Below, in pieces: positions 5,470 to 63,423 of a stretch of DNA of 64,000 nt. The DNA lies in assembly GCA_010356995.1 (NCBI GenBank), contig ML996696.1, positions 64,364-128,363 on the forward strand, read 5' to 3'. Position 1 is the stretch's first letter. Each line of letters starts with the position of its first letter. The DNA is from Trichodelitschia bisporula (taxonomy: Eukaryota). The position numbers and the translations under genes were made by a program. A model generated the notes under the pieces. The model did not search any database. It was given only the letters and a program-made list of their open reading frames with translations, and was not told the DNA's origin.

Positions 5470-5556
5470 TCCCCATTTCCGCCTTCGAACACCTTCACGT
5501 GACATTCTCCATTCTTTGACTTTCAGCCTTTGCTTCAGCCTTCATCCCAATCTCCT

Positions 5557-10219: not shown

Positions 10220-10720
10220 CTGAGACATGAAGAAAGGTATCCGCCGTGAACGCAAGAGGGGTATCTTTCATGAAGGCGGGAAGAAAGGCATCCGCCTGAA
10301 CGCAAGAAGGCTATCTGCCATAAGCGCCAGACATGAAGGGTATCCGACCATAACGTGAGATATCTAAGTGCCCAGTCCCGATAAGCCAAGTATGCAGCGG
10401 CCAACAACGCCGGAATATCCAACACCATCACGGAATATACATGACAACGCCCAGGTCAACGGACCAGATACAGAAGAGAGAGGGACTAGCCCTTGATATC
10501 CGACGCCACCGGTTTGGGGGGTATCTGAGGGTAGTTAGCAATGGAACTCATTAAACGTTGCACCGAAGCGAACGGATGCATGATGGAAGAGAGGGATGAT
10601 GAAAGAACATCACGATGAAGGAAGAATACCATGATGAAGGAAGAACATCATGATGAAGGAAGAACATCAAGATGAAGGAAGAACATTATGATGCGTGAAG
10701 CCACGCATAGAAGCAATGAT
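10220..10720. repeat. Degenerate ~50-bp repeats (10220-10350) and ~20-bp minisatellite (10580-10720)
   Basis: AAGAAAGG.ATCCGCC.TGAACGCAAGA x2; (ATGATGAAGGAAGAACATC)-like unit about 5 times. Confidence 0.8.
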
Positions 10721-10994
10721 GGAAAAGCACTTACACTATGGTACAGCAAGTACAACATTCTCAGCACCATGACTAGAAGATCACGAAGTCTAATAAGGAT
10801 CAGTAAAGAAGCAAGACCAAGTGATGAAGAACTCACGATGTGTTCCACCACAGTACGCCATCACCTGTTTCCAATCATCGACACCAAGTGTCAAATGCTG
10901 AAGAGGAGTCAGTACAAGAAGAAGAGGTAAGCAAAGGAAGCATACAAAGATTTCCACCACAGTATGCCACCACATGTTACTAGATCACGAGGAT

Positions 10995-11376
10995 CTACCT
11001 TTTTCGTTGTTTAGCCCGCCAAGCACCGTAATCTTGTGGACCTTCCCACGTCGATGAGTCTGTTCGATGCTTCGAATGGTGTTTTTCGTGAACCGCTCGA
11101 GAGGCCATGGCTTTCATTGCGCCTGCAGAGTGTTAGCAGGGTCAGAAAAGAGAAGAGGGGCAGTGACTTACCGTCGGAGGGTCCACCTGATGAACCAGAT
11201 CGATTGGGTGCTGGTGTTTTGGCTGCAGGTGGCTTGCGAGGGGCTTTGTCGACAACTGGTTGCTTCCCTTGTGCCTTGCTGCTCAGGCCGACGGAGGGTT
11301 GTGGCGCAGGGCGAGAGATGGGGCGGGGCTTATCGAGGCCGGTGTCGCCGGAGGGCGCTGAGCTGCAGCAACCCAT
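10995..11376 (-). CDS. Small (~110 aa) disordered basic protein with N-terminal MGCCSS lipidation motif; intron 11123-11171
   Basis: ATG GGT TGC TGC AGC TCA start; intron GTAAGT..GCTAAC..CAG joins ...GGPSDG to AMKAMASRAVHEKHHSKHRTDSSTWEGPQDYGAWRAKQRKR*. Confidence 0.65.
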
Positions 11377-11600
11377 CGTGAAGATCGCGAAAATTGGAAT
11401 CGGTTGATGAGGGTCGAGTCAACGAATCGAAGAAGAGGATCGGTGAATACAGCTCCGAGCTCAGGCAAGTGACATGTTAACACTTGACTGGCTGGAGGAA
11501 CGACAAGAGGCAAAGATGAAAGACGTTGAAATGGGTTCCGCGGGCTTCATGCCCGTCGGCGAGGAAAAGAAGAAGAGGAGCGGAGAGGGGGGGGGCGCCT

Positions 11601-12188
11601 CTACTTATAGGTTCTGAGGGCACGGAAGGTCGGTGTCTGTGGGGACGGAGGAGTCGGCGTCGGAGATCTTTGCGGTGGATGGCGAACCATACTTGCGACT
11701 GATAAACATTGTGAACTTTGGGTGGCCCAGCCTCCATCCGTTGTTGAAGTTGCTGGGGCCCCAGATTCTGGGTCCACCACATTCCCGTCAGTCTTCGGGG
11801 TAGCGGAGATGGTGTTCCAGACCCCCACCGTTACCGAGCCGTGCAATGTGATGTTCGATACTGATACCATTAGGACTCAACAGATATCCCAAGCTCCGCA
11901 GGTGTCACACTCATACCATTTGGTGCATTGTATGAAGAGGTCAGGGTCACCGTAAAGATGGTGGCCGTTTTGACCGCGCGTCTTTGCGGACGCGGGCGGC
12001 CATACTTTTGAGTATTGCGTTGAGTCCTTGGTGGTTCCATATGGGCGCGCAAAGGCCAGGGACTTTATCTCTGTGGGTGGCGGGATCACGAATGCAGCTT
12101 GTTGGGCGGTACTACTAGCCGGGGGGGGGGTGCGCTGTAGAGCCGTACTAATGGCGGAGGTCGGCTGCAGATCTGACCGCAGATGCAT
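11601..12188 (-). pseudogene. Possible degraded ZZ-type zinc-finger gene fragment
   Basis: WYECDTCGAWDIC resembles the ZZ YxCxxCxxxDLC half but is followed directly by TGA; the frame continues to 11601. Confidence 0.25.
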
Positions 12189-14165
12189 GCAAGGTACAAT
12201 CGGTAGATCGGAGTGAGGGATATTGTTTAGCCCAACGCCCTACCCCACCCAGATCGCTCTCCGACGATCGATCGGACCCTGCAGGTGGCTGGTGACTCCG
12301 AGGGCGATATCGCTTTGGATACGGATATCACCAAAATGTGGCTGACTCACGATCGTCGGGATTTTGGTACTAGTCGAGTGTGACGGCTAGTCGGTGATTG
12401 AGCGGATGGCGGCGGAAGCATTGCGTCATGACGATGACGGAGGGAGCGTGCTGGGGGGTACTGGTGGCGGGGGCCAGGGAGAGGTCTGGAGCGCGGTACT
12501 GACAGCGAATTAAGCCTGTGGAGCGGTGCTGACGACGAACGAAGCGCGTGGGCTGCATCGCTGGCGGAGGGGGCCTGTGGCCGTACCGATTTCGGAGGAC
12601 GCTGAGGCCATACCAAGAAAGAACCTGATGGAGCGGAACCGTAAGAGGCCGGAAGAGATCGTGACGAAGTCGACAGTGTCGTACTGCAGTCCACCGTCGT
12701 GAGCCGTGGTCGCTGTTGCTCAAGATCTCGATCGATGTCGCCCCTTCCCATTTCATCTGCGCATGGAGGCTTTAGTTGCATTGCGAGATGATTGACTGTA
12801 CTACATCGATCAGCTCAACTCTTAATGCACTACGAATAACAACTCCATTACCAAATAATTGTGCTGGAGCCGACGCAACTTGGGCCGAAGCGACTTTCGG
12901 GCCGTGAGTCGCTTTCTCGCGTTCGGATCCGAGACGACGGAGGCGCACGGTCGGTGAGATTTGCCGGCCGGGACGACGTAGGCGTGTGATCGGTGAGCTT
13001 CGCCGGCCCGCCTCCGCGGGTGAGATACCGAGCCGTAAGCTGTTTGCTCCCGAAACTTGAGCGTCATATTCCTGTCTCGATGTTAAAACGGGCGGTACAG
13101 GAATACTCGACGGTCCTCCATCGGGGATCCTGGAACAGAAACCGTGGAAGAGAAAATACCTGGAGGAATGGCTGTATATCTGTACACGCAGCAGAAGTCG
13201 TGCCATCACACCGGAGTGGTTCTTCAAAGGCTCGGTCGTCCGGTGTGAGGGAGACTGGTAATCGTAAGTTAAAAGTTCAAGAAGAAGCCGAAGCAACACG
13301 CGAAGTCGAGGCTATCAGAAGGTGGCCAAAGAGACGCAAGGAATAATATACCTATGAAAGCGATACGTCCCTTGCGCAGAAACATCGCCTCCAGCGCCTG
13401 GCAAACTACCAAAGTGCTGATAACTTTCCTCTCCGGTATATGTAGTTGCTGGTACTGCGGTTCTGCAAGACATGTCGTCCAGTTTACGTTCCACATATAC
13501 GTCACCATCACCCCACCCAAGTACATCTGGGGTCCAAGGGTCACAGAATCAAGCGTGACCCTCCTTTCCTTCTGCCTGGTGCGCAGCACACTGCAAAGGC
13601 CATGAGAGGCGGCCCTGATTTTCGGTTGCGTGGCCATGGTCGTACTCACGTTGCTGACAACGGCCCCTGTACCCCTTGTTCAACGGGTTGATTGGGAAGC
13701 ATTATGCGACGGAAAAGCGTCAAAGGAAGATGGTAGATGCGAGTGGCGCCTCTGGGTCTGCCTCGGTGCGTTAGAGCGACGACTTCACTTTCGTGTGCCG
13801 TACCATAACATCAGGCTTCATCTAGAGGAAACGGATGGGCGAAGCATTCGAGATGGCATCAGCCTTGCGTCTCTAAATTGCGCCAAGAATGCCTTGCAAG
13901 CGACATCCAACCCCATCAATCCTCGCGCACTAGAACTAGCCTCAACCAATGAGCAAGGCTTCCAAAAGCTTGACCCAACACCATCAAACATCCTCCCTAT
14001 CTCCCCAAAAAATCTCGGTCACTATTTCCCCGCCTCCGGCCCGTAACCCGCACAGCCACCCAGCCCCACGGCCCGGCCCGCCCCCTACTCCCCGCGCCAC
14101 ATCCTGCACTACACTCGGCGCCGCGCCGGCATCATCCGCCAACCTCACCGCGATTGACACCAACC

Positions 14166-25262: not shown

Positions 25263-26183
25263 GGTTGCGGCCGAGGGGCGGATGTGCAGATGCGAGGAGG
25301 GGTGGTGGTGGTGGGGTTCGAGATGCCAAAGATTTTGGGGGCTGTCGATATCGATAAGGTCCGGGCGCTTGGCGGGGGGGTGAGGCGGGGGGTGAGGAGG
25401 CGAGGCGGGGGACGTCGTGGAGATGGAAATACGGGTGGGACATTTGGATTTTGGGGGAACGTCTGCGGATTGTCAAGTGCTTTAATCAGGTTCAAAAGAA
25501 ACGAAGGCCAACTCTGAGTTGCTGAATATCTGATTCCAGGTTGAAATCTCTGCTAAATATAATGACGATGGACGGCTTAGGAGCATTTAACGACCGACGA
25601 CAACGAACTTCTCCTCCTTGACTTCTCGCCTTCATGTAGCTATCCGCCGTATGATGATTCATGGATTTTCCATCCCGGCGCAAAGCAGGCCTCGTGTTTG
25701 CTTCTGGATAATGTGGGAGTAGGCAGAAGTGAGATGCAGCTTCTCGCTTTGACTACGCCATGGCTTTTGGATATATCCGATGCTTTCATACGTTTAAGGT
25801 ACGAACAACAAACAAATTATCCCCAGCACCTATCCCGCTATGAAGCCGAGCATCGAAGAACAAGGTTATCCAAAAGGAAGCGCCTCCCGTCAGCGCAAAC
25901 CTTGCTCCTATCAAACTTCACTTCGGTAACATGCAAGCAGGCATCATCAAAAGAGCCCATGCATATCGTAAGCTGTTTGGCTCGATATCATTGCCATCTT
26001 TATTCCTATCGTCATAAATACCCCGCTGTGGCCGCTGTAGTCTCAGATCGCAGTGCCGCATCATACATGCAGGCCCAAGATTCAGAGCGCTCACATTCAG
26101 GAGGCCAACAGGATCGCTTACCGCATCAGGGCTCTCAGCTTCGCTCGTAGCCGACGGTTACCCTTCCCCCTCGGCCAGCCATC

Positions 26184-28311
26184 ATGGCCCCTATTAAGAT
26201 GCCCGAAGTCATCGACCTAACGTGTAAGTCACTCACCACCATGCCTCCTCTCCACCCCCTAACCCGCCCAGCGGAGACAACCCAATCCGACGCGGTCCGT
26301 CTCCTAAGCCACTGGATCGACCTCACCGTCCCCGAATACCGCGCCTGGGCACCCCCGGAATGCGCCCCCGTCACGCTGCGCAACGGGCCCATCTTCCCGC
26401 CCTGGATCACCCTCGACAAATACGCCGGCCTGTCCCCCGGCACCTGTGTCGAGCTCCATTCCACCGGGCCTCACCGAAATGGCGACATCTTCTACATCGT
26501 CCACATCCTGCAAAACACTGCCGACCAACTCATCGTCCTCCGCGGGCACCGCCTCGTCCGCGCGCGCCACATGGGCGGCATGCTGCAACCGCGCCGCAAG
26601 GAGCTCTGCCTTTTCGTCAATGCCGGCCTCGACGACACACGCCCTTTCCTCACGCAAGGCATGGAAGACGTGCCCGCAGCCGAGGTCATCATGCCCCGCA
26701 CCGTGGCCTTCGTCCCCGCCCCTAGCTCCGGTTGGCAGCTGGGCAACGCGACGCAGCCGATACTGGTCGACTCCGACGCCGAGTTCTCGTGTCGCTACGT
26801 GTTGGTGTCGTGGCACAAGAGCACGGCGGCGCGGACGACCAAGCGCGCGTACGAGGGCGAGTTGCGCGGGTTGTACGCTTCCGAGATTGCGTTTTTCACT
26901 GGTGAGCCTGTGGGACCGCAGCGCGTGTGTCCTATGTCTGCACGGCGTCTGCCGGGGGAAGTGACGTACTGGGATGGATTTTGTGGGCTCGGGGGCGCGG
27001 CGCAGGGGGCGAAGATGGCGGGTGCGCGGGTGGAGTGCGCGTTCGACATCGACGAGAAGGCGTGCACGACGTTTAAGCTGAATCACCCAGAGGCCGAAGT
27101 GTACCGGATTGACGCGCACCACTTCGCGCAAGATGACGGTCCGGCCAGCTGCTCGCCGGATCTGTTTCACCTGTCTTGTCCGTGTCAACCATGGAGTCCG
27201 GCACATACGCGCGTGGGCAAGAACGATGAGGCGAATGAGGCGGCGCTGTTTGTCACCAGTGCCATACTGAGCAAGTACAAACCCAAGATCCACATGCAGG
27301 AGCAGACCTTCGGACTGCCGGGGTGGCATCCGACGCAGTTCTCTGCCCTGCTGAATATGATTTCCGGTGAGGGGTATAAGGTGCGCTGGAAGGTGGCAGA
27401 TCTTAAGGACTATGGAGTGCCCCAGAAGGCGCGTCAGCGGCTTATCATTCTAGCTTCGCGGTTCGCCCCCTCATCCCCTGTGTCCCGATCTAGGTTTCGC
27501 GAACTAACTCACCCTCAGCGCCGACATCCCACTCCCGCGCTTCCCGAGCCCCACTCACGGCAACTACCCAGACCTGCTCCCCTACCGTACAATCCACGAC
27601 GCGGTAAGCCGCATTCCCGACACAGCCCCCAACCACCGCTCGCGCATCACCTGGTTTCCCCGCCCCCGCGAGCCCTACAACGCAACCCGCACAATGGCGT
27701 CGTGCGTGCTCGCGAGCGGTGGGTGCCGCGACCACACGCCCGACGGACGGCGTCGGTTCACGCCCGCCGAGAATCTGGCTCTGCAGACGCTACCGTGGGA
27801 TTATAAGTTCCCGGCTAGACTCACGACGGGCACGATGAAGAAGTTGATTGGGAATGCGGTGCCCCCGGTAGTTTGGAGGTTAGTGGTGGAGAAGTGTGTT
27901 TGGATGTTAGAGGCGTGGGAGGGGGGGCGGGTAGATGAGGAGGGGAGGAGGGTGCGTGTAAGCGCTGGTGCGAGTGGTGCGGGTGGTGCTGGTGCTGGTG
28001 CGGGTGGTGCTGTCAACGGGAGGGAGGGGAGTGTGGAGAGTGCGGTTAGTGGGGCGGAGTCTGGGGGAAGTGACAGTACGGTTCGGGTGGGGGATGGTGG
28101 TGCGGACAAGGGCGATGTTGTTATGGATGAGGGAGAGAGACGCACGCCGGCGACGCCGCCAAAAGTGAGTGCACGCGGGGGCGTGGTGGATCTTACTGTT
28201 GACGAGGACGCGGTTGATTTGACGCTGGATGAGGAAGAGGATCGGGCGTTGGGTGGGGACGAGGGGGAGGTGGAAGTGGAGGTGATTGATATTATGGATA
28301 TGGATGATTAG
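26184..28311 (+). CDS. rid: RID/Masc1-family cytosine-5 DNA methyltransferase; intron 27461-27518
   Basis: Motif I DGFCGLGG, motif IV SCPCQPWS, motif VI EQT (27300-27308; the Masc1/RID variant of ENV), motif VIII YGVPQ.RQRLII, motif IX RRFTPAE, motif X LIGNAVPP. Confidence 0.88.
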
Positions 28312-46559: not shown

Positions 46560-48193
46560 CTACAACAGCACCAAGCCCGCGCCGAAACCCGCTGCTACGA
46601 CGAGATACGCACCCATCAACAAGCTCTGGGTCGGCACCGTGCTCACCGCAGCGCCCTTCTTCGCGCTGCCCGTGCCACTGCCACTCCCACCGCTGCCAGT
46701 CACGGTCCCCGTCCCGGCGGCACCAGCCTGGCTAACAAGCGCCGCACACGTCCCCGACGCAGTAGTTAAGCTCTTAAGCGTCGCGGAGCCACCAAAATCG
46801 CACGCCGTCGACGCACTATTCTGGCCCTTGTAGTACTGGTTAAGCACAAAGCCGAGCTGCTCGGTAGAATTGCAGACGGAGTACGCGCCGTACGCGCCCG
46901 TCAGGGCGTTGGCCTGGATGCCGGCGCAGTACTTGACGCCCATGCCGCAGACCTGGCCGAACAGCTTGCCGTAGTCCTTTTCGGAGATGGCGGTCGAGGG
47001 CACGCATTGCAGGGACTGGTACATGCAGCTGCAGAGCTGGTTGTTGGGCCCGGGGGGGAGGGGCGAGCTCTTGGCTTCCCAGGTGCCGGTTTGCACGGGT
47101 GGGCAGGAGGCGGGCTTGTTGGTGGGGTTGTAGGAGTCCATGTTCACGCCGGTGGGGGCGATGGAGGCCAGGCGGCTGGAGAGGGCGGTGAAGTCCGGGA
47201 GCAGGGAGGCCTTGGTGCCGGTGACGGAGACGAGGCCTGGGAGATTAGCAAGGGTTTGACGTGAAAAAGACACAACTTACCGTAGTTGTTCGCCTCCTGG
47301 AAGTACATGTAGACAATGCCACCCGAGAACACGCCGGTCATGTCGGAGCTGTACAGAGAATCGACTTCACTGAACTTGCGCGGCTGGACGGTGTTGCAGC
47401 CGTATTCGGCGAAGAATGATGGCACCGAGTAGCTCGAGAACTCCTGGACGCGCTTGTCGTAGCCCGACTCCGTGAAGGACGAATCGCCGCACCACGAGTA
47501 GATGTTGTAGCCCCAGAAGTCGATTGCCTCGCTCTGGTCACCGCAGTTGAAGTAGTTGGCCATGTTCTCGCGAATGACGGCATCGTCGTTGGTCGCATAT
47601 CCGACGTACATGGTGCGGTATCCCTTGGCCTTGATGTACGCCTTGGTATCGCGCACGGCCGCCTTCACGAAAGCGCTCGCGTTGGTGTTGGTCTTGTTGT
47701 TGGACACCTCGTTGCCGGCAAAGAAACCAATGACATTGTTGTACTGCGAGAACATGTCAACAACGGCGGTGTAGCGCTCGTAGAGGGCATCGTTCCAGGC
47801 GGGCGAATCGCGGTTGATGGACAGGTTCGGCTGGCCCAGGTCGGCAATGATGTAGATCTCGTTATCAAGGAGCAGCTGCATGCACTTGGAGTGGTCCTTG
47901 GTCGGGTCGACGGCGTACGTGCGGATGACATTGGTATTGAGCTGCTTCAACAACGGAATGTCCTGCGCGCAGCGCGTGGCGTCGGCCAGAGGGTCGAGGT
48001 AGTCGGTAGAGTCGGAAGTGGCGCCGCTGGGCCCGATATCCTGCTGGTAGGCGACGCCGCGGATGAAGAACTGCGTGCCGTTGGACTTGTAGAAGAACTT
48101 GGAGCCCTTGATCACGATGGGATCGACGTCAGCGACGACGGAGCGCGCAAAGAGCGCTGCCGCCGCGACAGCAGTAGCAATGGTGAAACGCAT
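46560..48193 (-). CDS. GPI-anchored 1,3-beta-glucanosyltransferase, GH72 with CBM43/X8 Cys-box (Gas1/Gel4-type); intron 47237-47280
   Basis: Signal peptide, [36 protein letters not shown], Cys-box CSCM..C..CG..C..C..CDF, S/T/G linker and hydrophobic GPI tail. Confidence 0.96.
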
Positions 48194-51100
48194 GATGATG
48201 TTGGAAAAGTTATGACGATGCTGAAAAGTCGCCTTTCACCAAGAGGAGGTGAACCAAGCGTTCCGGATTCGGCGTGCTGGTGCCAATAATATCCGGGATG
48301 GCGCAAACGACAGTGGAGAACAAAGAGCGATTAAAGACTGTACTAAGTAGGGAAGAAATCGCGTCCTTGGGAAGGAATTGTTTGGTGTTGCAGTGTCGTA
48401 GTTGCGACAGGAGGAATGAAAGCGCCAAGTGCGAGTTTCCAAGAAAAGGGGAACGGACGGCAAGGGAGGCGCTGGGGGTGGTGTCCGGGGGGTGTTAGAC
48501 CTTGCCTTTTTTGGCCCTTCACTAGGGATTTCGATTCACTGAATGGCTGGCAATTGGCTGACGGACTGCTGTACGAGCTTCAGGCAAGCGAGGGGGAAGA
48601 GTGGGGGCGACGCGCAAGCGTCCTCCGTGTCCGGTCTTTGAGGCTTTTTGGTTTGCCGGATTCCGGATGCGAAACCTGGAGTGTACAAAGTGACAACCGT
48701 GGAGAAGTGTTTGAAGGACAACAAGTGGAGAGCTTTCTGCGTTTTGGAAATCAAGTGGGAATGCTGAGACTCAAATTACTGGAGTGAAGCCTCACCGGAA
48801 GTCATCAGGATGAAACGGATAGCAGACGAATGCGGATAAATACTCTCTTCCCATCATGCGCGTCCTGATACTCGGACTGATATCCCTCCTCAATGCCCTT
48901 CCCGGTCTCATCCCGGTTTCTCGAAGCGCAGATGTCCGGACTAGCATCCGGTTTCCAGTCTCTCGCATCTGACATGCATAAGCTTCTCACCTACAAAGTA
49001 CACAGCCTACCAACTTTGTGTCGCGCGAGACATCAGATCGAACGCGAGCCTCTGACGCGCCATCTCCTGCAGAATACGATTGCTGCTAGCGAACAGGAGC
49101 TGCATCCATGAATAGCAGAGATGAAGGTTGAATGCGAAGGATCCAAACATATTAAGTCCTTTGATAGCAACTGCGCCATCTAGGGCCGTCCAACGAAGCT
49201 CAAAGGATCGACGCGCACTAATCCGGCATCCGCGGCTTCATCAAACCAAGCACCGGCGCCATCAAAGCCATCCGCCTTCCTATCGATAGCTGCTGTTAGA
49301 CACACTAACAAGTGTTCCAGACCGTCAGTCAATCCTTCGACGCTATTGTCGTCAAGATGGAACATGAGGAGCTTCCCTCAGGCCTATATCGTGCGTTCGG
49401 CATGGGACATCAGTAGGCGCGCGCCTCTCGTTGTTAGTTAGGGCAGGTCCAGTTATGAACAGATGAATAGGCAACAGTACTCTACACAACCGTGTGCGAT
49501 ATAACGAGCCCAACCCCGGTGAGGTTGGATCGCGGACAGGGTCTCAGTCTGAACCACCTCGCGGATACGGATGGCAGATCGCGACTGCGTGTAGTTGGAA
49601 TGGTTGGAACGGTTGGAATGAAGCTTCCTGAACAAAGCATCGGCGGTAAGAGCGATGCTTGGATATCAGTTCCCCAACGGAGGACCAACGGGACGATGTT
49701 TCCTTTTCCATTGATGGGTGATGCGTTGACGTCATCATCTGGCCCGAGCACAAACGACGAGCGTTTACCGAACGTCCAACGACCTTTAGCAAACAAGCCC
49801 TTCAACTCATTCATCATGTTTGAATTGCCCCATCTTTGTCGTCCGACCCATGGCCGGTTCCTCTGCATCCCTATTGTGCTAGCGACCAACTCCACTGGTG
49901 ATATAGGATGAGACGCGTAGTCTAACTGTCTGCATCTTCAATATCAACTTGCCGGTCTCGTTCCATAAGGATCGGGATGGCGGACTCAAGAAGTCCATCT
50001 AGCCATACGCTGCATAGTTCAAATATTTCTACTCGTCATCAACTGCTGTGAGGATTGTTCTTTCATGACAGCAAAGATCGTTTGAGCTCAGAGGTTGTCA
50101 TGCCCCATGCTGGCGAGAAGGATGAAATCACCGAGTAAGCTAGGTTGCATCCATTGCTTTATATACTCGAAGGAGCTGACACGCAGGCACCAGGCTGCCA
50201 CGGCGCGCTCTCGTACAAGTTGGCACCGACGCTGTCCGACGGCACTTCGAAGCGATGACTCGACTGTACGGTACTACCACAACATATGTGTCACCTGTTA
50301 CGACAGCACGATGATCACGGGGTAGACGGAACACTACTACGAGACACTCAATTAGAGCAACCACGAGCTGAACGTCGCGGCGGGACGTTCGGCGCGTGCG
50401 TCGTACGACATCGGCGTTCCCAGTGGAATCGTCTAACCGCTCTTAAGTAGTGTAGTGAAGGCAATCTTCCAGAAGCAGATATAACGACTTCGCTCCCAAA
50501 GACCAACTCCGCTTCTCAATTAAGGCAAGCACGCCTCTATTCGCGGTGTGCCGAGAGAAGGAAAGGGAGGATGAGCGCAGCGAGCCCCAGACAGACCCCT
50601 TTCAGACCACCTTCGACACGACCGTGAAGCCCGCCATCCCATCCACCACCGGTCCCCGCGAAACCTCGCCGCTGCTTCAGAACTATGGTTCCCGACACTG
50701 CCACGGCCGCGATAACGCCTACTGTGTCACTTACCTTTCTGCAAGGGCTTTTGGTACCACAAGAAGCGCATGCAAGCTCTCACGCCGGCGCTAGGTATCG
50801 GATGGGACTCGTGCACGAGCTATTGAAGGCCGAGGTGGGACGACTGTTGACGAGGACTTGTGAGCTAACTTGCACTTCGTGTCTCCTGTGATTTTCGGCA
50901 CTGGGACCATGAACTCCAACGGCCTGAGCGGGCGATGAGCCTAGAAAATACGTCGGAGGCAGCCGAGGAGCTGTTGGAGCAGTGGATCGCGAGGCGAATT
51001 TCGGTTGATAGTTCGCCACCTCAGCCTCCTCGAGCACTGGAACGTCAGTCATGGCATCAATGTTCCTCGTTGTGAATTGGCTCCTGAGGAGTACCGAGTA

Positions 51101-54100
51101 GCGATGTCAAGCTGCTAGGCCACATGCACGGCAAGGCCGGCAGTCTAAATGAACAACTATCTCCTGATAACCTTTCCAATCCCATACCGCATGTCATTGA
51201 GAGGAACCGAAGTCATTGTCATTGTCCGCTCTGTAACTAAATCTGAATTTTGTTTTTGATATCGACCTTGACTCCCAAAGGCCCAAAATCAATTTAAAAC
51301 CATATCTGAGCCCAACCATCCCATCCATGAATTTATCCACCTTAAATCACTCCGTTATAACCCTTCTTCCATGTCACATCTGTATATACACCCAGGCCAC
51401 GCCTCTATCCTCGCCTCAATCGACGTCATTCCATCAAGCCGCAACCTGGCACAATCCCCTCGTTCCTCGGCAGTCTACAACTACGACGGCAGACCGATCC
51501 TCGGGCCTTACTCGCTGGTGAGCGTCGTCCATGTGTTCTATATTGTAGCTTGTATACGGCGGCCTAAGAGCCCGACTGCCTATTCAGTGTTTATTACGGT
51601 AGGGCGGACGCTCAGCAGCCTAATCCTTCCCCAGCCAGGTCCCAGCTCCATCGTCGGAAGATAAGCCACTACCCCGACGCTCATCACGCAGACCCATAAA
51701 CGGCGTAAGTCATTGTGGCCCAGCCCGCATGGTTCCTGCACAGAATGATATGGCTAAGCCAAACCAAACGGAACAAATGCGGATTGACCTCCATGATCCT
51801 CCGTGAATCCGTCTGCACTTATCCCGGCCGAACACGGTCGTGCATGCCCGCGACTCGGCTTGCAGAAAGTCAAATTTAACAGCTGAAGATATCACAGAGG
51901 CATTGCGCAAAAAGGACCGCGGGATGAAGTCTACGGGAAGATTAGAACTGGAGATTATGCACCGCAGTCTCAGAGATTATGCAATGCAGCCTTAAACTAT
52001 CTGTACGGAACCTACGCATCCCCATCACTCTTCGACTCACCCACGTACCGGATACGGATGTACGTATCGCCAAACTCACCAGTCTGAATCTCCAAACCCT
52101 CGCACCAAATCCCATCACCCCCGCCATCCCAAAACCACCAATCCCCACCCCAATTCCCCATCCCCATGCACCCGCAAAATGACAGGACCCCCGCGCCTCC
52201 CGCCTTGGGACGCAGTCATCCGGAGCCTCAAGATTCGCCTCAAATTTCTCATCATGCGGATGTAAACGTTGAAGCCGGGCCGGGAAGGCCAAATAACCCG
52301 CTCCCGAGACGGAGGAAAACGCGCCCCTTCCACGCTCTGTGACCCCGCTGCGTAACGCAGCCTCCGCGCTCGTCCCACCGACGACGCACGATAGCGAAGC
52401 GCAGTCGGGCTTGCGTACCCAAGTCCCCAGTTTGAGGAAGCTGCCTTGCTTCAGCTGAACATACGCAGCGCGAGCGATGCAGCAGTATGTACGGCGAGGA
52501 GAGGTGACGCGGCTTGCGCACCCAACGGCGATACAGTCCAGTCCCGAAGAACGGGGGGGAGATAGGAAAGCGGAGACCCGACCGGCGCGCTTACGGCGCA
52601 ACACGGCTGCGGTGCAAAAGTCCGATGCAAACGCTTCCACTCCCGCATACACTCCTGCACAATTTCTGCACTGCAAAAAACTCAGACCCAAAAGTCCGAT
52701 TCCTTTCCCCACTGCCCTCGAATCGTGGACCCGAACCACAATTGGGTGGCGATTTTGTTCGCTTTCCGTTGAAGTTGAGATCGGCCCTTCGCGCTTCGCT
52801 GCTCGTTCTATTTCAGGCCCGTTGGATGCAGAAGCGGCTCGTGGAAGGGGGTGCGGCGCCACCTACGGTAAGTAGGGGGGATTAGCACTGGGTTCTGCGG
52901 GTGGCGGTTATGGCCGGGGGAAGGAGGGGTGTGGCGGTGCAGATGGAAGCATGATCACGACCACCAGTATGTCCATACGTCCTTTGCCATGCAAGACGTC
53001 GTGGATAATGTCATGGCTGTGCTTGCTCATGGGAAGCGTGAGGTGCAACGGCATCTCTCAGTTCTGGACGGCGTTCCAGATCACAGGTGTCTGCTGGGAA
53101 AAAGGTGACCTCAACGTCAGCGCCGTTGAGGCCCCTAAATTATGAGCTAGCCACGCGCGAAGTTGGAACGCAAGAACTGCTTCCACATGGCATTCTGTCA
53201 AGACTACGAGCCAAGTGCACGATGAGGCCATGGAGGGTTGACAGTTGAACCCCGGAGCTTGAATTGGTGTAGAGTTAGCTTTGCGGAACACAATGCGCTA
53301 CTGACCAGGAGGCCGATGCAACGTTGCTGAAGATTTCGACTAGGCGCTTTGCGCGCGATGTCTCGTTCGAAGATGAAGATATGAGGCATCGCACACCGAG
53401 TCCTAAGTGATGGGTAAGCCGACAGATGAACTAGTTCATGAGATCCGTTGTCGCCGTCATAGTCTTGGGGTCATTGCTCGAATGCCGGGGGACACCATTG
53501 CCACTTGATTTGTTGAACTGATACCATTCTACACCCTCAGTCGAGGAGCCCCATAGTCTGGACGGTGGAAAGCCAGTTGGCATAGCCAAAGTTGTCTTTG
53601 TTCGGAACGTGGTGGGTGATGGCGTTTTTGAAGCGATGAAAGACGTTGGTGACGTACACGGAAGACGGATGGTACGGTAGAACAGAGCGAATGTGATGCT
53701 GCAAATTGGAACAGGCCCAAATAATTGCGATAGATGAAGTTGATGTGTCGAATTGATGCGAGACTACTGTACGGCCTGACGATGTAGAAATGTTCGTGCG
53801 TTGTGCGTCTGATATTTGGGCGATGTCAAGCATCCTCGTCCCTTCCTTGGTTTCTCGTCCGCTCTTTCCTCGAGCGCCTCTGATGATGGCGTAGTATTGC
53901 TGTCTCAGTGCACACCGTAAGGAAGACGACAGGACAGAATTCATCAACTCGTGTTACCATTCTACATGGCAGGCCGACATCGTCCAAGATGTTGTACCTG
54001 AAAGCTATCAACGAAGTACTTCTGAAGCGGAACATGAATAGACCGCAATTTGATGATTCGCATCCTACGTTAGTACCAAGCGCAAGTCCTCCGTACTAGT

Positions 54101-56130
54101 GGCTGACCCGGCAAGGCCTCCCATTTCCTATCTCTCCTTTATCGTGCTTGGCTGACGATGCTTGATTGATGGAAGATTCGGCCCTATTCGAGTACTCCGA
54201 TCGTGGCTCCGACATTCAGTCGTGCAGAACCCGAACACCGCATCCTATGCCCCTTTCCCTTCCCCTTCCCCTTCACCCTACCTCCGTAAAATGTGGATTG
54301 ATATCGCATTCGAACGAACCTTTCCCAAGGCCTTCCATCGCCAAACACCGGATCGCAGCGGCGTCTTGCACGACCAAGTGGGGCAGAGGGCGCAACCAAG
54401 CGGGTCACGCCAGGAACGCCCACACGGATAGTGGCGGTGCAGGGACCGGTGCCAAACCTCTGTAGGGAGACTCGGCCGTGTCACTTGTCAGGGAGTGGTA
54501 CCGACCGGTGGCTGCTCGGCGCGGGCGAGGGATCTACCGAGCGAGCCGCCGCCACCCGATCGGCGCAGGGCGACCAAAAGTGAACAGAAGCTGAAGGAAC
54601 CCGGTGTGCGTGGAGCTGGTGGAGCCGATAGGGACAATTGGACGGTAAGCGAGGCTAGTGGACAGGTGTTGAGGATGCAATGGTGACGAGTGGGTGAGGT
54701 GGCGAGAGAAAGGACTTGTTTTGGGGTACCGAAAACGGATTTGGGACAACTGGACGGAATGGGCGAAGGGTCGCGACGAGGGGGGAGGGACGCTGGCCAA
54801 ACAACGGAATGGAAGCTCCTGAGCCAATGCATGGCCTTAAGCATGGTCGGCGGCACCGCCACGGTCCATGCAGCACACCTGCAGGAAGAGATGCGCAGGC
54901 GCAGTGCGCGCTGCAGACTGCAGCAGTGCGGCTAAGTTAGCGCAGAAGAGTTGCATGGACCTTGGAATGGGAGGCGATGACGAAGGGCCAGCGAGACCCT
55001 TGAACTTTGCCATTATTTTAGCTGGCAAGGAGCGAGGAGCGACATGCGACAAGCGACTACGAGAAACAGGGAAGGGGACCGTGCGAACCAGTCCGATATC
55101 AGCAGTTGGCAGCGGGAGGCTGAAAAGGCATTCAGCAATCAGAAGAGGGCGCCTCATGCATTGAATGCCCCCAAAAATCAAGGAGCGGGTTTTAGTAGAT
55201 AGGCTTAATTACGCTACTGGTTATGGGTCAGGGCACTGGGAGGTTTGCAGGATAGGCTTGCAGCGGGGCCGGTGTTAAATCGTTGCATGGGCGATTGGGG
55301 CTTTCCAGGGGGAATTGGGGCAAAGATAGAGAAGAGAGTAAGCAACTTGAGAAGAATCGAGTGAAAGTGCAATTTGGCGGATTCTAGGGGAGGACGGAGG
55401 GGGTGATGGGGTTCAGGGGGGTTTGGTTGGTCCGGCCGTTTGCCCGTAATTTAAGTAGACAGGGTCATTGACGCCGTGTGAAGAAGGGGAATCGGCCACG
55501 AGCGACCACTAGCATGCATTAGATACGGCGCTAGGCCGAACTCATGTGCGTCGCCCCCTTTCCCCGGGCGCAAGGCGAAAAGAACAGTTGCCAAGGGACT
55601 GTCCTGTCCCCCGTACTTGCTAACCCTCTTGACCCACCTCCCTCTCCACCACCAACAACCCTCCCCTCGCCTCCTCTCCCTTTGTTCCCTCTTCTTCCCT
55701 CAACAACCTCCTTCCTGACATTCGTTGTGCTTCGTCCCTTCGTTTTTGCGTAGGACAACATTGTCAATTCGTCTCTCTGCGAAAGACGTTTGTCATAATC
55801 CTCAACTTCGACATCACCAACCCCCCCGACAACACCCCCCAGTGAATCTCCGACGCTAAGCCAGGAGTTAACCGTCGCTGCTGGGCAACGCTCGCTGGGA
55901 ATCTGCAGGAGAGGCTCACGCAAACAACCCAACCCTTCCGCCAGCCACCTTCTCTCACCCACGTACTTTCGTTCATCTCAAACACTCTCTCCCACGCTCT
56001 TTTGCAACAACCGTACAGCTCGCAACACAACAATCTGTTCTGACTTTTCATCCTTCGAACACTCATCGAAGCTCACGCGCAAAAATAATACCCTAATTTA
56101 CTCGCCTTGTGGGCCCGTACCCAAAACGTA

Positions 56131-56278
56131 ATGCCCAAGAACTGAGGTGAGTGGCCAGCGACTTCCGCACGCGCTTCCCCTCGCGTTTCATGTCCCCACA
56201 TCCCACCCAAACAATCTCGCTCCTCGACCTAATTCTTCTATCAACGCACCCGTCCTGACGTTCTCTCCGCATGTCTAG
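56131..56278 (+). promoter_or_regulatory. FKS1 leader: 4-codon uORF (MPKN*) followed by a 5'-UTR intron 56147-56278
   Basis: ATG CCC AAG AAC TGA at 56131-56145, donor GTGAGT at 56147, branch-like CCTGAC near 56254, acceptor TAG 56276-56278, 25 nt before the FKS1 ATG. Confidence 0.6.
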
Positions 56279-56303
56279 TTCTCCATAATCACATTTCCCC
56301 ATC

Positions 56304-59300
56304 ATGTCGGCTCATCCGCAAGCCGGTCATCACGATGACGGCTACGACCACCATGCAGCGCCCGGCAACGGCCAGGCCGCATACTACCAGGACGATTACT
56401 ACGACCAGAACCAAGAGTACCCGGCGCAGCAGCAGCCCGGTGGCGAGCACTACTACGACGAACAGCAAGCGGGCTTCTACACCGACCAGCAGCCTGGCTA
56501 CAACGCTCAGGACGGCTACTACGATCAGCAGCAAGGCTACCAAGGCGATGAGTACTACGACAACGCCTACTACGATCAGGCCGGCGCTCCCGGCCAGCAG
56601 CAGTACACAAATGGGTGCGTTTCATCGTGTCTCCTAAAGTGTCAACGGCTAACCGTCGCAGTGGCCAACCGAGGCGTCGCGGGCAGGACTCCGAAGAGGA
56701 CTCAGAGACGTTCAGTGACTTCACAATGAGGTCAGACGTGCATCGTACCGCGGATATGGACTACTACGGCCGCGGCGACGAGCAGTACAACAGCTATGGC
56801 GAGGCGCCGGGTGGTCGTGGCTACCGGCCCTCCTCGTCACAGGTATCGTACGGTGGCAACCGCTCTTCGGGTGCGTCGACGCCCATCTACGGCGGCGAAT
56901 TCGGTGCTGCGCTCCCCGCCGGTCAGCGATCGCGTGAGCCGTACCCAGCATGGACGCCCGAAGCGCAGATTCCGATCACCAAGGAGGAAATTGAGGACAT
57001 CTTCATGGACCTCAAGGCCAAGTTTGGCTTCCAGGGCGACAGCGTGCGTAACATGTACGACCATCTGATGACGCTGCTCGATTCGCGTGCGTCGCGCATG
57101 TCCCCGAACCAAGCTCTTCTTTCGCTTCATGCCGATTACATTGGTGGCGAGAATGCCAACTACCGTCGCTGGTATTTCGCTGCGCATCTCGACCTCGATG
57201 ATGCCGTCGGCTTCTCCAACATGACCCTCGGCAAGGGCAACCGTGCAACTCGCAAGGCCCGCAAGGCCGCCAAGGCGAAGGCAGACGCGAACCCTGAGAA
57301 CGAGGAGCAGACGCTTGAGGCACTTGAGGGCGACAACAGCCTGGAGGCGGCCGAGTACCGCTGGAGGACGCGCATGAACCGCATGTCGCAGCACGACCGC
57401 GTCCGTCAGATCGCACTGTACCTGCTGTGCTGGGGAGAGGCCAATCAGGTGCGCTTCATGCCGGAGTGCCTCTGCTTCATCTTCAAGTGTGCCGATGACT
57501 GGCTCAACTCGCCGGCCGCGGCCAACCGGCACCAGGATGCTGAGGAGTACACGTACCTCAACAATGTCATCACGCCGCTGTACCAGTACATCCGTGACCA
57601 GGGATACGAGATCCAGGATGGCAAGTACATGCGCCGCGAGCGCGACCACTCGAGCATCATCGGGTACGACGACATCAACCAGCTTTTCTGGTATCCCGAG
57701 GGCATTGAGCGTCTCGTGCTCGAGGACAAGACGCGCCTTGTGGACTTGAAGCCTGCCGAGCGCTTCGAGAAGCTCAAGGACGTCAACTGGAAGAAGTGCT
57801 TCTTCAAGACGTACAAGGAGTCGCGGTCGTGGTTCCACATGCTCGTCAATTTCAACCGTATCTGGGTCATCCACGTCACCGCTTTCTGGTTCTACACGGC
57901 CAACAATACCCCGACATTCTACACCAAGGGCTACGAGCAGGAGAAGAATCAGAATGCGCCTCGTGCGTCCCACTGGTCAGCTGTTGCTCTCGGCGGTTCT
58001 GTCGCCTGTCTCATCATGATCGCCGCTACGATTGCCGAATGGTTCTACGTCCCGCGCAAGTGGGCAGGTGCGCAGCATCTCACGAAGCGCCTGCTCTTCC
58101 TGATTGGCATGTTCGTCCTGAATATCGCGCCCAGCGTGTATATTTTCGGCTTCAATCACACGAACACGATTGCGTATGTGCTTGGTATCGTCCAGTTCTT
58201 CGTCGCCTTGGCCACGTTCCTCTTCTTCTCGATCATGCCCCTCGGCGGTCTGTTCGGCAGCTACATGATCAGCAAAAAGTCGCGTCGCTACGTTGCGAGC
58301 CAGACGTTCACTGCGAGCTGGCCGACGCTGAAGGGTAACGATATGTGGATGTCGTATGGTCTCTGGGTGCTTGTCTTCACCGCCAAGCTGGCCGAGTCCT
58401 ACTTCTTCTTGACGCTGTCGTTCCGTGACACCATGCGCATTCTGTCGATCATGGACATCCGTAACTGCCAGGTGGACGGGATTATCAAGTTCAAGCTGTG
58501 CGTCTACCAACCGAAGTTTCTGCTGGCTCTCATGTTCTTCATGGACTTGATCCTGTTCTTCCTCGACACGTATCTTTGGTTCATTCTCGTCAACACGCTC
58601 TTTTCGGTAGCCCGCTCGTTTTACCTCGGCGCCTCCATTTGGACGCCGTGGCGCAACATCTTCTCCCGGCTGCCGAAGCGTATCTACTCCAAGATCCTGG
58701 CTACCACTGACATGGAGATCAAGTACAAGCCGAAGGTGCTCATTTCCCAGATTTGGAACGCCATCGTTATCTCCATGTACCGCGAGCATCTGCTGGCTAT
58801 CGACCACGTGCAGAAGCTGCTCTACCACCAGGTGCCGTCGGAGCAGGAGGGCAAGCGCACTCTGCGTGCGCCGACCTTTTTCGTGTCGCAGGAGGACCAT
58901 TCTTTCAAGACCGAGTTCTTCCCAGCTCAGAGCGAAGCCGAGCGCCGCATTTCCTTTTTCGCACAGAGTTTGTCTACGCCAATTCCGGAGCCGGTTCCTG
59001 TCGACAACATGCCCACGTTCACGGTCATGATTCCGCACTACAGTGAGAAGATCCTCCTGTCGTTGCGCGAGATCATCCGCGAAGACGACACGTACTCCCG
59101 CGTCACGCTGCTCGAGTACCTCAAGCAACTGCACCCGCACGAGTGGGACTGCTTTGTCAAGGATACCAAGATTCTTGCCGACGAGACATCTCAGTTCAGC
59201 GGTGACATGGGGGAGAAGAGTGAAAAGGATGCGGCCCGCAGCAAGATTGACGACTTGCCGTTCTACTGCATCGGGTTCAAGTCTGCTGCTCCTGAGTACA

Positions 59301-62187
59301 CTCTCCGCACGCGTATCTGGGCTTCTCTGCGCTCGCAGACGCTGTACCGCACCATCTCCGGCTTCATGAACTACAGCCGCGCCATCAAGCTCCTGTACCG
59401 CGTCGAGAACCCCGAGGTCGTGCAGATGTTTGGCGGGAACTCGGACAAGCTGGAGCGCGAGCTCGAGCGCATGGCCCGTCGCAAGTACCGTATCATCGTC
59501 TCCATGCAGCGCTATGCCAAGTTTTTGAAAGAGGAACGCGAGAACACCGAATTCCTGCTCCGCGCGTACCCTGACCTGCAGATTGCGTACCTGGATGAGG
59601 AACCACCTCTCGTCGAGGGTGACGACCCGCGTATCTTTTCTGCGCTCATTGATGGCCACTCGGAAATTATGGAGAACGGCATGCGGCGTCCCAAGTTCCG
59701 CGTGCAGCTCTCTGGCAACCCCATTCTTGGTGACGGCAAGTCTGATAACCAGAACCACTGCATCATCTTCTACCGCGGCGAATACATCCAGCTTATCGAC
59801 GCCAATCAGGACAACTATCTTGAGGAGTGTCTCAAGATCCGCAGCGTGCTGGCCGAGTTTGAGGAGATGACCACGGATAACGTTTCGCCTTATACGCCCG
59901 GCATGGCTCCTACCGGAAAGTCCCCTGTTGCCATTCTTGGTGCCCGTGAATACGTCTTCTCGGAGAACGTTGGTATCCTCGGTGACGTCGCTGCTGGCAA
60001 GGAACAGACATTCGGTACTCTGTTTGCTCGTACCCTCGCGCAGATTGGTGGCAAGCTCCATTACGGCCATCCCGATTTCCTCAATGGCATCTTCATGACG
60101 ACTCGTGGTGGTGTGTCCAAGGCTCAGAAGGGCCTGCATCTTAACGAGGATATTTACGCCGGTATGACTGCTCTGCTCCGTGGCGGCCGCATCAAGCACT
60201 GCGAATACTACCAGTGCGGCAAGGGTCGTGATCTTGGCTTTGGTTCGATTCTCAACTTCACCACGAAGATCGGCACTGGTATGGGCGAGCAGATGCTGTC
60301 TCGCGAGTACTACTACCTTGGCACGCAACTTCCGCTTGATCGGTTCCTGTCCTTCTACTACGCGCATCCCGGCTTCCACATCAACAACTTGTTCATTATC
60401 CTCTCGGTCCAGATGTTCATGTTTGTCATGATTAACCTCGGCGCGCTGAAGCACGAGACCATCATCTGCCGGTACAACAAGAATGTCCCCATCACCGACC
60501 CGATGAAGCCCACGGGCTGCGCCAATCTGGCTCCGGTTATGGAATGGGTGCAGCACTGCGTTATCTCCATCGTCATCGTCTTCTTCATCTCCTTCGTGCC
60601 TCTCGTGGTGCAAGAGTTGACGGAGCGTGGCTTCTGGCGCGCGGCTACCCGTCTTGCCAAGCACTTCGCATCTCTGTCGCCCTTGTTCGAGGTGTTCGTT
60701 TGCCAGATCTATGCGAGCTCGCTGCATCAGGACTTGTCGTACGGCGGTGCTCGGTACATCGGTACCGGTCGTGGCTTTGCGACGGCTCGCGTTCCATTTC
60801 GCATCCTGTACTCTCGCTTTGCGGGCCCGTCCATTTACATGGGCTCACGCTTGCTGTTGATGCTTCTGTTCGCCACATGCACGGCTTGGGGTCCCTGGCT
60901 CGCCTACTTCTGGATCTCGCTGCTTGCGCTCTGCATCTCGCCGTTCCTGTTCAATCCGCATCAGTTCTCGTGGCACGACTTCTTCATCGACTACCGCGAG
61001 TACCTTCGCTGGCTGTCGCGCGGCAACACTCGCTCGCACGCTGAATCGTGGATCGGCTTCTGCCGTCTCTCGCGCACGCGTATTACGGGTTACAAGCGCA
61101 AGGTCCTCGGCGAGCCGTCCGACAAGATGTCCGGTGACGTCCCGCGTGCTCAAATTTCCAACATCTTCTTCAGCGAAGTGTTGGCTCCGATTGTCGTGGT
61201 TGTCATTACGCTATTCCCCTACCTGTTCATCAACTCCCAGGTTGGTGTGACTACCGAGAACAACCCCGACGTGGAGATCAAGCCGACCAACTCGCTGTTG
61301 CGTGTGGCCATTGTCGCGTTCGCTCCCATCGCCGTCAACGCTGGTGTCCTCACTGCCTTCTTTGGCATGGCTTGCTGTATGGGCCCGCTCCTCAGCATGT
61401 GCTGCCAGAAGTTTGGTGCGGTGCTGGCCGCCATTGCCCACGCGATTGCGGTTATCATGCTGTTCGCATTCTTCGAGGTCATGTTTTTCCTCGAAGGCTG
61501 GAACTTCTCACGCGCTATCCTGGGCATGATCGCCGTGATGTCGATTCAACGCTTCATTTACAAGCTCATCATCGCCCTTGCCCTGACTCGCGAGTTCAAG
61601 TCGGACACCGCCAATATTGCCTGGTGGACGGGCAAGTGGTACAGCATGGGTTGGCATACGATTTCGCAGCCTGGCCGTGAGTTCCTGTGCAAGATCACCG
61701 AGCTGGGCTACTTTGCAGCGGACTTTATCCTCGGACACATGCTGCTCTTCGTCATGTTCCCAGTACTCATCATTCCCATGATTGATAAGATCCACTCGGT
61801 CATGCTCTTCTGGCTGCGTCCCAGGTATGTATTTTTTCGAATGGTGTTTTAGCATATGCTAATAGCGTCTCCAGCCGTCAAATTCGCCCTCCCATCTACT
61901 CGCTCAAGCAGTCGAAGCTGCGCAAGCGCCGCGTCATTCGCTACGCTATCCTGTACTTTGTGCTGTTGGTCATCTTCATCGCGCTCATCGTCGGCCCGCT
62001 GGTGGCTAGCCGGTACATCAAGTTCAACTTCAAGGTCGCCGACCTGGTACAGCCGACTGGCCGGAACAACAACGATACCTTCTCCTCCGAGACAGGTACG
62101 GCCAACCAGAATGGCGGAGCCGCGGCTACAGATGGTGCGGCTGCGACGAGCGCTGCTGCCCGGCGTCTGTTGGTCAAGTACATGTGA
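56304..62187 (+). CDS. FKS1: 1,3-beta-glucan synthase catalytic subunit (GT48); introns 56615-56661 and 61825-61874
   Basis: [76 protein letters not shown]; many TM helices. Confidence 0.99.
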
Positions 62188-63423
62188 AGCGGTTAAATTG
62201 TTGGAAGGTGTAATTATATGCTTGGCTGTTGGGCCTTGTCAATCGCTTGGTTTATTCAACCAGCGCTGTGGATAGTGTGATTGGGGGTGGGCAAGCAAGC
62301 AAGCAACGGCGCGGCATGCGGGGGAGGGCTTAATGAAATCATACACTAGTGATCGGACTGGCTTGTTTTTGCGCTTGGTCTTGTTGGGTGCATCTTTGTG
62401 GCGCTAGGATTGATGGCGTCGGACTTGTTCATTTTTTCTTTTCTTCACGGGGAAGAGAACTTTATGGGAGAGTGTATATAGATGGTAGGCGATATTGAAT
62501 TTGTTGACGCATGGCTTTTACTCCAACGTGGTTCCAGTGAATGGTGAGGTTTGTGGTGTGGTGCTCTGCTCGGGGATGCCGTTGACTCTGCCACGCGGGT
62601 CTTCAGGTGGGTAAAGGCTAGACCTACTGCTTTTGAAGCCTCTAACCTTCGCTAGACATCCCCAACTCATTCATCCAACTGCAGTCTTCGCTCTCCACGT
62701 CAAATTTCTACAACTTCCATATTTCACGTGACACACCCTCGATGCAGCTGACAAAACTCCGAAGGTCCAGTCCTGCCAAAATCTACCCCTCACGCCTGGA
62801 ATACGAGTCGGAAATATACGTCTACGCGGGCCCCAAGGCCTAAGATAAACCACCAATCTCACTTTCCGCCGTCAGCATGTTCCGCAATCTATCGCAAACG
62901 CGCCATCGCGTGCCCCCATCCGGCATAATCAGCAACGGGTATGACGCCGATGGAAGAGCAAAGTACACTCCCAAATATCAACTCACTGCATTCGCTAAAC
63001 TGAGGCTCAAAGTGCACGGCAGCAGTTTCTCCCCAGATGCTCACGTCGATGACATCGATCTGGACCGCCATGCCGTTACTTCGAGATCCAACGCTGTAGT
63101 TCTAGTAAAATCTTAAACACATCCCGTGTCCCGCCATGTATATTGCCCAGCGCCGCATCACCTGCAACAACCTCTCGATCCACCAATCCTCCCCCGATGA
63201 ATGAGAGAGATCCGCCAATCCGCCTCCCCCCGCGCATTTATTCTCCGCAAAGGCGGCACAACCTGCCCCTTCAAGCCCTCCATCTGACCCTCCGCCCGGG
63301 CCGTGCGCGCGTCGCATCCATAAGGTTATATACCCAACGGGCGCGGTGCTCGCGCGTGCTTGCTTCACGACCACCAACCCCAGCTTCACCCATCCTACCG
63401 CCGCCATGCGACCAGACACAAGC

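Follow-up and report, generated by a model that had tools for sequence, protein, structure and literature searches.

Echinocandin resistance has been studied mostly as an acquired clinical trait, and natural polymorphisms in the hot spots of the glucan synthase Fks1 are already known from a few pathogens. We present here a further such case, the FKS1 gene of the fungus Trichodelitschia bisporula, which lies in a 64,000-nucleotide stretch of contig ML996696.1 (GenBank assembly GCA_010356995.1, positions 64,364 to 128,363, forward strand; hereafter the window). A preliminary description of the window had noted substitutions at resistance-linked positions in two of the three hot spots of this gene and had suggested intrinsic echinocandin tolerance of a special FKS1 copy. 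The substitutions are present in genomic and transcript contigs, they are rare among relatives, and they lie in what is probably the housekeeping gene, whose product is predicted to have reduced echinocandin sensitivity.

FKS1 gene and transcripts

The window contains a complete FKS1 gene at 56304-62187 on the forward strand, in which an open reading frame (ORF) of 1745 codons is flanked by two short introns (Table 1). Translation of the joined exons gives exactly protein P0002, which NCBI names as FKS1 of Trichodelitschia bisporula. Three Pfam matches exceed their curated cut-offs: Glucan_synthase (PF02364; E = 0), FKS1_dom1 (PF14288; E = 4.9e-38) and FKS1_dom2 (PF23605; E = 1.6e-76). The solved chains of Saccharomyces cerevisiae Fks1 (7xe4_F, residues 456-1776) and Gsc2 (9wzs_A, residues 475-1795) each align collinearly over 1320 aa at about 2090 bits, and this similarity takes in the hot spots in transmembrane segments (TM) 5, 6 and 8. 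By its domains, structure alignment and orthology, the product is identified as the catalytic subunit of the Fks1/GT48 beta-1,3-glucan synthase.

Contigs, not raw reads, of four public runs (X1 to X4; two samples, two studies, one organism label) were compared with the window over 56000-62400. X3 and X4 are DNA-type runs and possibly the source of the assembly itself. X1 and X2 were taken as RNA because their contigs are spliced, with three GT..AG joints that are absent from the DNA contigs; no record labels them RNA. The contigs of all four runs show zero letter differences and zero indels over the compared stretch, and the ACC and CAC codons of the two main substitutions therefore stand in DNA and RNA contigs alike. 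The spliced RNA contigs thus confirm the gene model and both codons in transcripts, and FKS1 is transcribed and spliced; contig depth is unsuited to ranking its expression. The X2 contig has 6527 letters, of which 115-6286 fall within 56000-62400. The remaining 355 overhang that stretch at its two ends, by 114 and by 241 letters, and the FKS1 mRNA therefore reaches beyond it.

Hot-spot residues

Read in the frame of the 1745-codon ORF, hot spot 1 (HS1) is FLTLSFRDT and hot spot 2 (HS2) is EWVQHCVI, in agreement with the preliminary description. The tryptophan of hot spot 3 (HS3) is intact, as that description also stated; it overlooked the phenylalanine directly after it. Residues were mapped by alignment to the solved Fks chains and a constant Fks2-to-Fks1 offset of 19, and the Candida albicans equivalents, P649 and R1361, are as given in PMC7711656 and PMC2812698. 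The same papers uphold the association with resistance that had been drawn for these positions (P649/P660A and R1361H). Beyond T694 and H1402, six changes at conserved positions surround the glucan-exit gate: M695, V708, M731, F744, A761 and V1408.

In the structure described in PMC13249079, the gate is formed by F639 and R1357, R1357 hydrogen-bonds S643 and the emerging glucan, and caspofungin sits in a groove of glucan and hot-spot residues. That paper also reports that R1357H, R1357G and R1357S lower yeast growth and that R1357H gives caspofungin resistance in spot assays. Table S2 of PMC13147539 scores R1357H resistant to each of anidulafungin, caspofungin and micafungin, with literature and scan in agreement, which bears out the resistance link proposed for the HS2 histidine. 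Its counterpart in C. albicans, R1361H, is a clinical allele. For the HS1 end, Pro-to-Thr is the clinical Fks2 change P667T of Nakaseomyces glabratus, with caspofungin MICs (minimum inhibitory concentrations) of 0.5-2 ug/mL scored as resistant, and both P647A and the Candida parapsilosis HS1 are pan-resistant in yeast. The contacts reported for enfumafungin in Candida glabrata FKS1 are F625 and W681; their equivalents, F686 and W743, are unchanged in T. bisporula.

Table 1. Positions in the window of FKS1, its introns and gate residues, and the neighbouring GH72 gene
Feature	Positions	Strand	Details
FKS1 coding region, three exons	56304-56614, 56662-61824, 61875-62187	+	1928 aa; TGA stop included
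5' untranslated region intron	56147-56278	+	132 nt, GT..AG; joint 56144/56277 (cut +2) in X1 and X2 contigs, absent from X3 and X4
Coding intron 1	56615-56661	+	47 nt, GT..AG; joint in X1 and X2 contigs and sequence reading
Coding intron 2	61825-61874	+	50 nt, GT..AG; joint in X1 and X2 contigs and sequence reading
HS1, FLTLSFRDT, aa 686-694	58406-58432	+	TTC TTG ACG CTG TCG TTC CGT GAC ACC
Thr694 (ACC)	58430-58432	+	S. cerevisiae P647, C. albicans P649
Met695, right after HS1	58433-58435	+	S. cerevisiae I648; Ile in 117/119 relatives
Val708, loop after TM5	58472-58474	+	S. cerevisiae G660; Gly in 119/119 relatives
HS3, aa 738-748	58562-58594	+	LDTYLW at aa 738-743; Trp743 (S. cerevisiae W695) unchanged
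Phe744	58580-58582	+	S. cerevisiae Y696; Tyr in 119/119 closest relatives
Ala761	58631-58633	+	S. cerevisiae I713; Val in 118/119 relatives
HS2, EWVQHCVI, aa 1398-1405	60542-60565	+	GAA TGG GTG CAG CAC TGC GTT ATC
His1402 (CAC)	60554-60556	+	S. cerevisiae R1357, C. albicans R1361
Val1408, TM8 just after HS2	60572-60574	+	S. cerevisiae F1363; Phe in 110/119 relatives
GH72 beta-1,3-glucanosyltransferase (Gel/Gas) gene with X8 domain	46560-48235	-	Glyco_hydro_72 E = 6.5e-125; X8 E = 4.1e-23

Rarity among relatives

A first protein search gave 2306 matches among 7866 candidates, of which the best 120 (T. bisporula and 119 relatives) were analysed; every one has 87% identity or more over 901 aa, and the nearest match other than T. 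bisporula itself has 91%. In these 119 closest relatives the HS1 end (694) is Pro in 113, Ser in 3, Thr in 2 and Ala in 1, and the HS2 site (1402) is Arg in 116, His in 2 and Ile in 1. In none of the 119 does a non-Pro HS1 end occur together with a non-Arg HS2. A wider set was built from the best 120, 80 metagenome loci and 40 proteins and contained 211 unique sequences after deduplication. The 40 added proteins were retrieved with only the 61 aa around HS2 as query, a selection that enriches HS2 His and leaves the HS1 state unbiased. Here the HS1 end is Pro in 198, Ser in 9, Thr in 3 and Ala in 1; the HS2 site is Arg in 204, His in 6 and Ile in 1; and the HS3 Trp is followed by Tyr in 209 and by Phe in 2. 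The residues singled out in the preliminary description are thus not common among relatives.

A search of representatives at 50% identity, in which 150 proteins were listed and those of at least 900 aa aligned, reached oomycete and plant callose synthases. Hot spots align unreliably in the latter sequences, and this search is used only for recognisable fungal Fks1, in which Pro and Arg predominate and further double variants are present (e.g., P0126 and P0132). The T. bisporula HS1 string, FLTLSFRDT, belongs to the pool of natural hot spots grafted into S. cerevisiae FKS1 in PMC13147539, and a full-text literature search for the string found no paper. The supplementary file of that study with the 411-row orthologue table gave 0 matches to 12 three-letter patterns for a His-bearing HS2.

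Single natural variants were seen elsewhere in the set. Lineolata rhizophorae (P0012) has the HS1 WLTLSFRDS, Microthyrium microscopicum (P0089) has FLSLSFRDA, and Pseudovirgaria hyperparasitica (P0066) has an R-to-I change in HS2 (NWIQICII). Six metagenome contigs (L041-L044, L047 and L052) carry the HS1 ALALSFRDS, with F-to-A, T-to-A and P-to-S changes, together with the canonical HS2 arginine.

Orthology and neighbouring genes

A GH72 (Gel/Gas) gene is transcribed divergently from FKS1 in the window. Among 30 loci of relatives with at least 9 kb of sequence upstream of FKS1, 27 have a GH72 homologue there on the opposite strand, and all 34 GH72 matches share the divergent orientation. The linkage is ancestral synteny and therefore marks the T. 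bisporula gene as the orthologue; the GH72 gene is a conserved neighbour and no part of a resistance device. In the full-length tree, T. bisporula FKS1 groups with those of Venturia inaequalis and Verruconis gallopava with support of 0.997. The accepted position of Phaeotrichales is next to Venturiales, with which this placement agrees. One T. bisporula protein appears in the best 120 matches of each of two protein searches. We take the gene to be the housekeeping, syntenic, expressed FKS1 orthologue of T. bisporula. The notion of a special "Gas/Gel-linked FKS1 copy" in the preliminary description is unsupported, given the ordinary synteny, the clade support and the transcribed and spliced state of the gene.

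Pfam detected no nonribosomal peptide synthetase (NRPS), polyketide synthase (PKS) or terpene cyclase domain, either among the 30 longest window ORFs or among 10 ORFs on the two sides of FKS1, where the downstream side is bounded by the 1.8 kb of window beyond the gene. The 30 longest ORFs include kinases, a 2-oxoglutarate (2OG) oxygenase, PDCD2, CSN8, C-5 DNA methylase, an aldo-keto reductase, Glyco_hydro_cc and the GH72 gene with its X8 domain; the 10 ORFs beside FKS1, in the GH72-FKS1 spacer and downstream, have no Pfam match.

About 8.1 kb of unremarkable GC content (48236-56303) separate the GH72 gene from the FKS1 start codon. The edge of the GH72 gene is 10.1 kb away from the matched FKS1 segment in T. 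bisporula, versus 4.1-6.7 kb in 27 relatives. Elsewhere in the window, a C-5 cytosine DNA methylase domain is split between two adjacent forward-strand ORFs (26151-28311), its N-terminal part in one and its C-terminal part in the other, and the two are probably one intron-containing gene.

Clustering of changes and evolutionary rate

The 120-sequence alignment has 1269 columns that are at least 90% conserved, and T. bisporula deviates at 40 of them. Eight of the 40 deviations (positions 694, 695, 708, 731, 744, 761, 1402 and 1408) fall in a gate zone of 66 columns, defined as the TM5-TM6 stretch 680-765 and the TM8 stretch 1395-1410 and picked after the data had been seen (Fisher p = 7e-4). 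In seven sister sequences, which show 16-35 deviations, this zone accounts for 0-3 of them (p >= 0.2). Within the published limits of HS1, HS2 and HS3, at the same 90% threshold, 3 of the 40 deviations fall in 20 of the 1269 columns (p = 0.023); five other sequences of the 120 likewise show 3 hot-spot deviations.

The distance from the clade ancestor to the tip is 0.112 for T. bisporula and 0.081-0.133 for five sister tips. This lies within the sister range, and T. bisporula FKS1 is therefore no faster than its sisters; the distinctive feature is the location of the changes, not their rate. A test of FKS1 against GH72 rates was left with 9 genomes because of introns and gave distance ratios of 1.16 for FKS1 and 1.03 for GH72, too weak a comparison to be used.

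Covariation of HS1 and HS2

All six of the 211 sequences with HS2 His are altered at the equivalent of F639, S643 or P647, as against 40 of the 204 with Arg. The HS1 change is P-to-T in T. bisporula, P-to-S in metagenome contig L021 and in protein P0278, F-to-Y in P0077, S-to-I in P0099, and both S-to-P and P-to-S in P0294; the sole R-to-I sequence (P0066) has a canonical HS1. Comparison of HS1 change between non-Arg and Arg sequences gives a Fisher p of 4.8e-4 over the 211 sequences, with kinship ignored and the six His sequences amounting to about four lineages. These lineages number at least four: T. bisporula, L021, P0278, and a group of P0077, P0099 and P0294.

The L021 contig, placed in the tree as sister of a Chaetothyriales sp. 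protein, has FKS1 at 8165-13867 on the forward strand and a GH72 gene with X8 domain at 2659-5001 on the reverse strand. This GH72-linked locus combines the HS1 FLTLSFRDS (P-to-S) with the HS2 DWVDHCVL (R-to-H), and no biosynthetic domains were found in its 22 kb. P0077, P0099 and P0294 have R-to-H and C-to-S in HS2 in common (DWVFHS..) and differ in their three HS1 states; their neighbours in the same clade, P0102 and P0092, carry Pro or Thr in place of the S643/S645 serine. This clade as a whole abounds in substitutions at resistance positions. A 2423-aa Chaetothyriales record (P0051) has an aminotransferase domain (PF00155) fused to FKS1, probably by merger of gene models, since an aminotransferase gene lies just 3' of FKS1 in L021 (14811-15937).

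We put forward only tentatively, as a possibility on the doubtful side, that HS2 Arg-to-His has occurred at least four independent times in wild Pezizomycotina, always with a change at a key HS1 position, through either inhibitor-selected multi-site resistance or an epistatic rule of the gate. Under the former, natural glucan-synthase inhibitors would favour target resistance at several sites in environmental saprotrophs, well ahead of any use in the clinic; under the latter, HS2 His would need a partner change in HS1 to be viable. The pairing fits the recently solved gate structure with its R1357-S643 bond (PMC13249079) and could guide the reading of combined FKS genotypes. If it is truly recurrent, T. 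bisporula would be the one named member of the HS2-His set in which it is testable.

Interpretation

HS1 (TM5), HS3 (TM6) and HS2 (TM8) make up the exit gate of the glucan channel, and echinocandins act there, wedged against the emerging glucan. This gate is remodelled in the T. bisporula lineage: a histidine (H1402) replaces the gate arginine, a threonine (T694) replaces the helix-breaking proline at the end of HS1, and the six further gate-surrounding positions are altered as well. Because the same two main substitutions lower echinocandin sensitivity in yeast Fks, the enzyme and the fungus may be naturally less sensitive. With gene identity, structure, expression, residues, rarity and clustering established, tolerance is the phenotype that we infer, and we consider it fairly probable, by analogy with yeast, that T. 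bisporula Fks1 is measurably less sensitive to echinocandin-type lipopeptides. Pressure from inhibitor-producing competitors in dung is a candidate cause of fixation; another is a single primary change with compensating changes afterwards.

Several observations weigh against reduced sensitivity. The equivalents of F639, S643 or P647 are altered in 46 of the 211 sequences, mostly F-to-Y; HS1 variants are therefore fairly common in wild Pezizomycotina, and a variant hot spot alone is unexceptional. FLTLSFRDT itself occurs once in the 411-row orthologue table of PMC13147539, in Diaporthe ampelina, with its phenotype unstated. The effects of hot-spot changes vary with background and drug: isolates with P667T are scored as micafungin sensitive and mixed for anidulafungin, and Y696F is reported as sensitive, with the scan disagreeing only for anidulafungin. 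T694 and H1402 are identical in four runs that represent two samples under one organism label, with no further isolate or congener among the searched collections, and the papers listed for Trichodelitschia, judged by title and abstract start, include none on antifungal susceptibility or metabolites. The gate-zone p value rests on a zone chosen post hoc, and its statistical support is limited.

Other such observations are those expected if the gate changed by chance in a long-isolated lineage and neighbouring changes restored function, with no drug phenotype or one irrelevant in nature. No terminal branch of the full-length tree exceeds that of T. bisporula (0.112), an isolated lineage, and only 2 of the 120 sequences have more deviations at conserved columns. 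The strict hot spots show a modest enrichment that weakens as the conservation threshold rises, from p = 0.023 at 90% to 0.042 at 95% and 0.17 at 97%. The background dependence of drug effects fits as well. The growth cost of R1357H/G/S in yeast, as recorded in PMC13249079, would lead one to expect compensating changes nearby, and the R1357-S643 contact in the same paper would explain HS1-HS2 covariation without a drug. Nonetheless, drift by itself would probably not fix a growth-costly change in an essential enzyme that is so highly conserved, replacement of the HS1 proline has repeatedly been linked to lower susceptibility, and the same His resists all three echinocandins in the yeast scan and caspofungin in the spot assays cited above. 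It also occurs in at least four lineages, each with a change at an HS1 resistance position, and we regard compensated drift as rather unlikely.

Improbable, by comparison, is self-resistance of a producer, in which T. bisporula would make an echinocandin-like lipopeptide, an enfumafungin-type triterpene glycoside or a papulacandin-type compound and be protected by its altered target. Dung fungi are known antibiotic producers, which counts in its favour. Producers also need protection at the target, as in the Pezicula radicicola and Coleophoma empetri cases in PMC9987125, but the cases described there use an additional FKS (prfks1a and CEfks2) beside the housekeeping gene, and here the syntenic orthologue is altered. 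The missing NRPS, PKS and terpene cyclase domains in the 30 long window ORFs and the 10 beside FKS1 speak against the self-resistance raised in the preliminary description, as do the unchanged enfumafungin contacts and the lack of a metabolite paper in the genus literature surveyed. An auxiliary, relaxed or specialised duplicate, with a canonical housekeeping FKS1 elsewhere in the genome, is very improbable: extra FKS genes exist in some Pezizomycotina, but this gene occupies the ancestral GH72-FKS1 locus, has a position in the tree that agrees with the species phylogeny, has a branch from the common ancestor no longer than those of its sisters, is covered by deep spliced RNA contigs, and is the one T. 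bisporula protein among the best matches of both searches. Sequencing or assembly error at the ACC and CAC codons deserves practically no credence and is rejected at the contig level, where four runs agree, two independent spliced RNA assemblies included.

As a free-living dung fungus whose only detected FKS1 joins these HS1, HS2 and neighbouring changes, T. bisporula would show that the drug-binding gate of glucan synthase varies in nature at exactly the clinically relevant positions, it would offer a natural example of compensation for the R1357H growth cost, and it would be a harmless system in which to study whether inhibitors in the environment shape their target. The practical weight of the case is limited while tolerance stays predicted.

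Comparison with known systems

Target-based protection in non-pathogenic ascomycetes is represented by prfks1a of Pezicula radicicola and CEfks2 of Coleophoma empetri, which PMC9987125 presents as second copies tied to production. In T. bisporula, by contrast, only one gene was detected, the syntenic orthologue, and no location in or beside a biosynthetic cluster, of the prfks1a type, was found in the window, which covers 1.8 kb downstream. Natural polymorphisms linked to intrinsic resistance are known in filamentous ascomycetes from the first HS1 residue of Fks1 (F-to-Y in Fusarium, Neurospora and Magnaporthe) and likewise from HS3 in Scedosporium; T. bisporula differs in retaining both Phe686 and Trp743. 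The Fks2 P667T of N. glabratus is the identical Pro-to-Thr change at the HS1 end, but the gene concerned is a paralogue in a pathogenic yeast, and the effect of the change depends on the drug (caspofungin resistant, micafungin sensitive).

The same residue change at the same gate arginine as H1402 is found in C. albicans R1361H and S. cerevisiae R1357H. Those alleles are products of drug treatment or laboratory work and carry a growth penalty, whereas the T. bisporula histidine is the wild-type state and is accompanied by neighbouring substitutions. The Fks1 P660A of the C. parapsilosis complex is, like T694, a natural substitution of the HS1-terminal proline in a housekeeping glucan synthase; it confers intrinsic reduced echinocandin susceptibility, and its HS1 makes S. 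cerevisiae pan-echinocandin resistant. T. bisporula, a filamentous dung saprotroph, differs from it in having Thr rather than Ala, together with the HS2 Arg-to-His change and further gate changes. Like P660A, T694 and H1402 are wild-type substitutions at hot-spot positions where changes are known to lower sensitivity.

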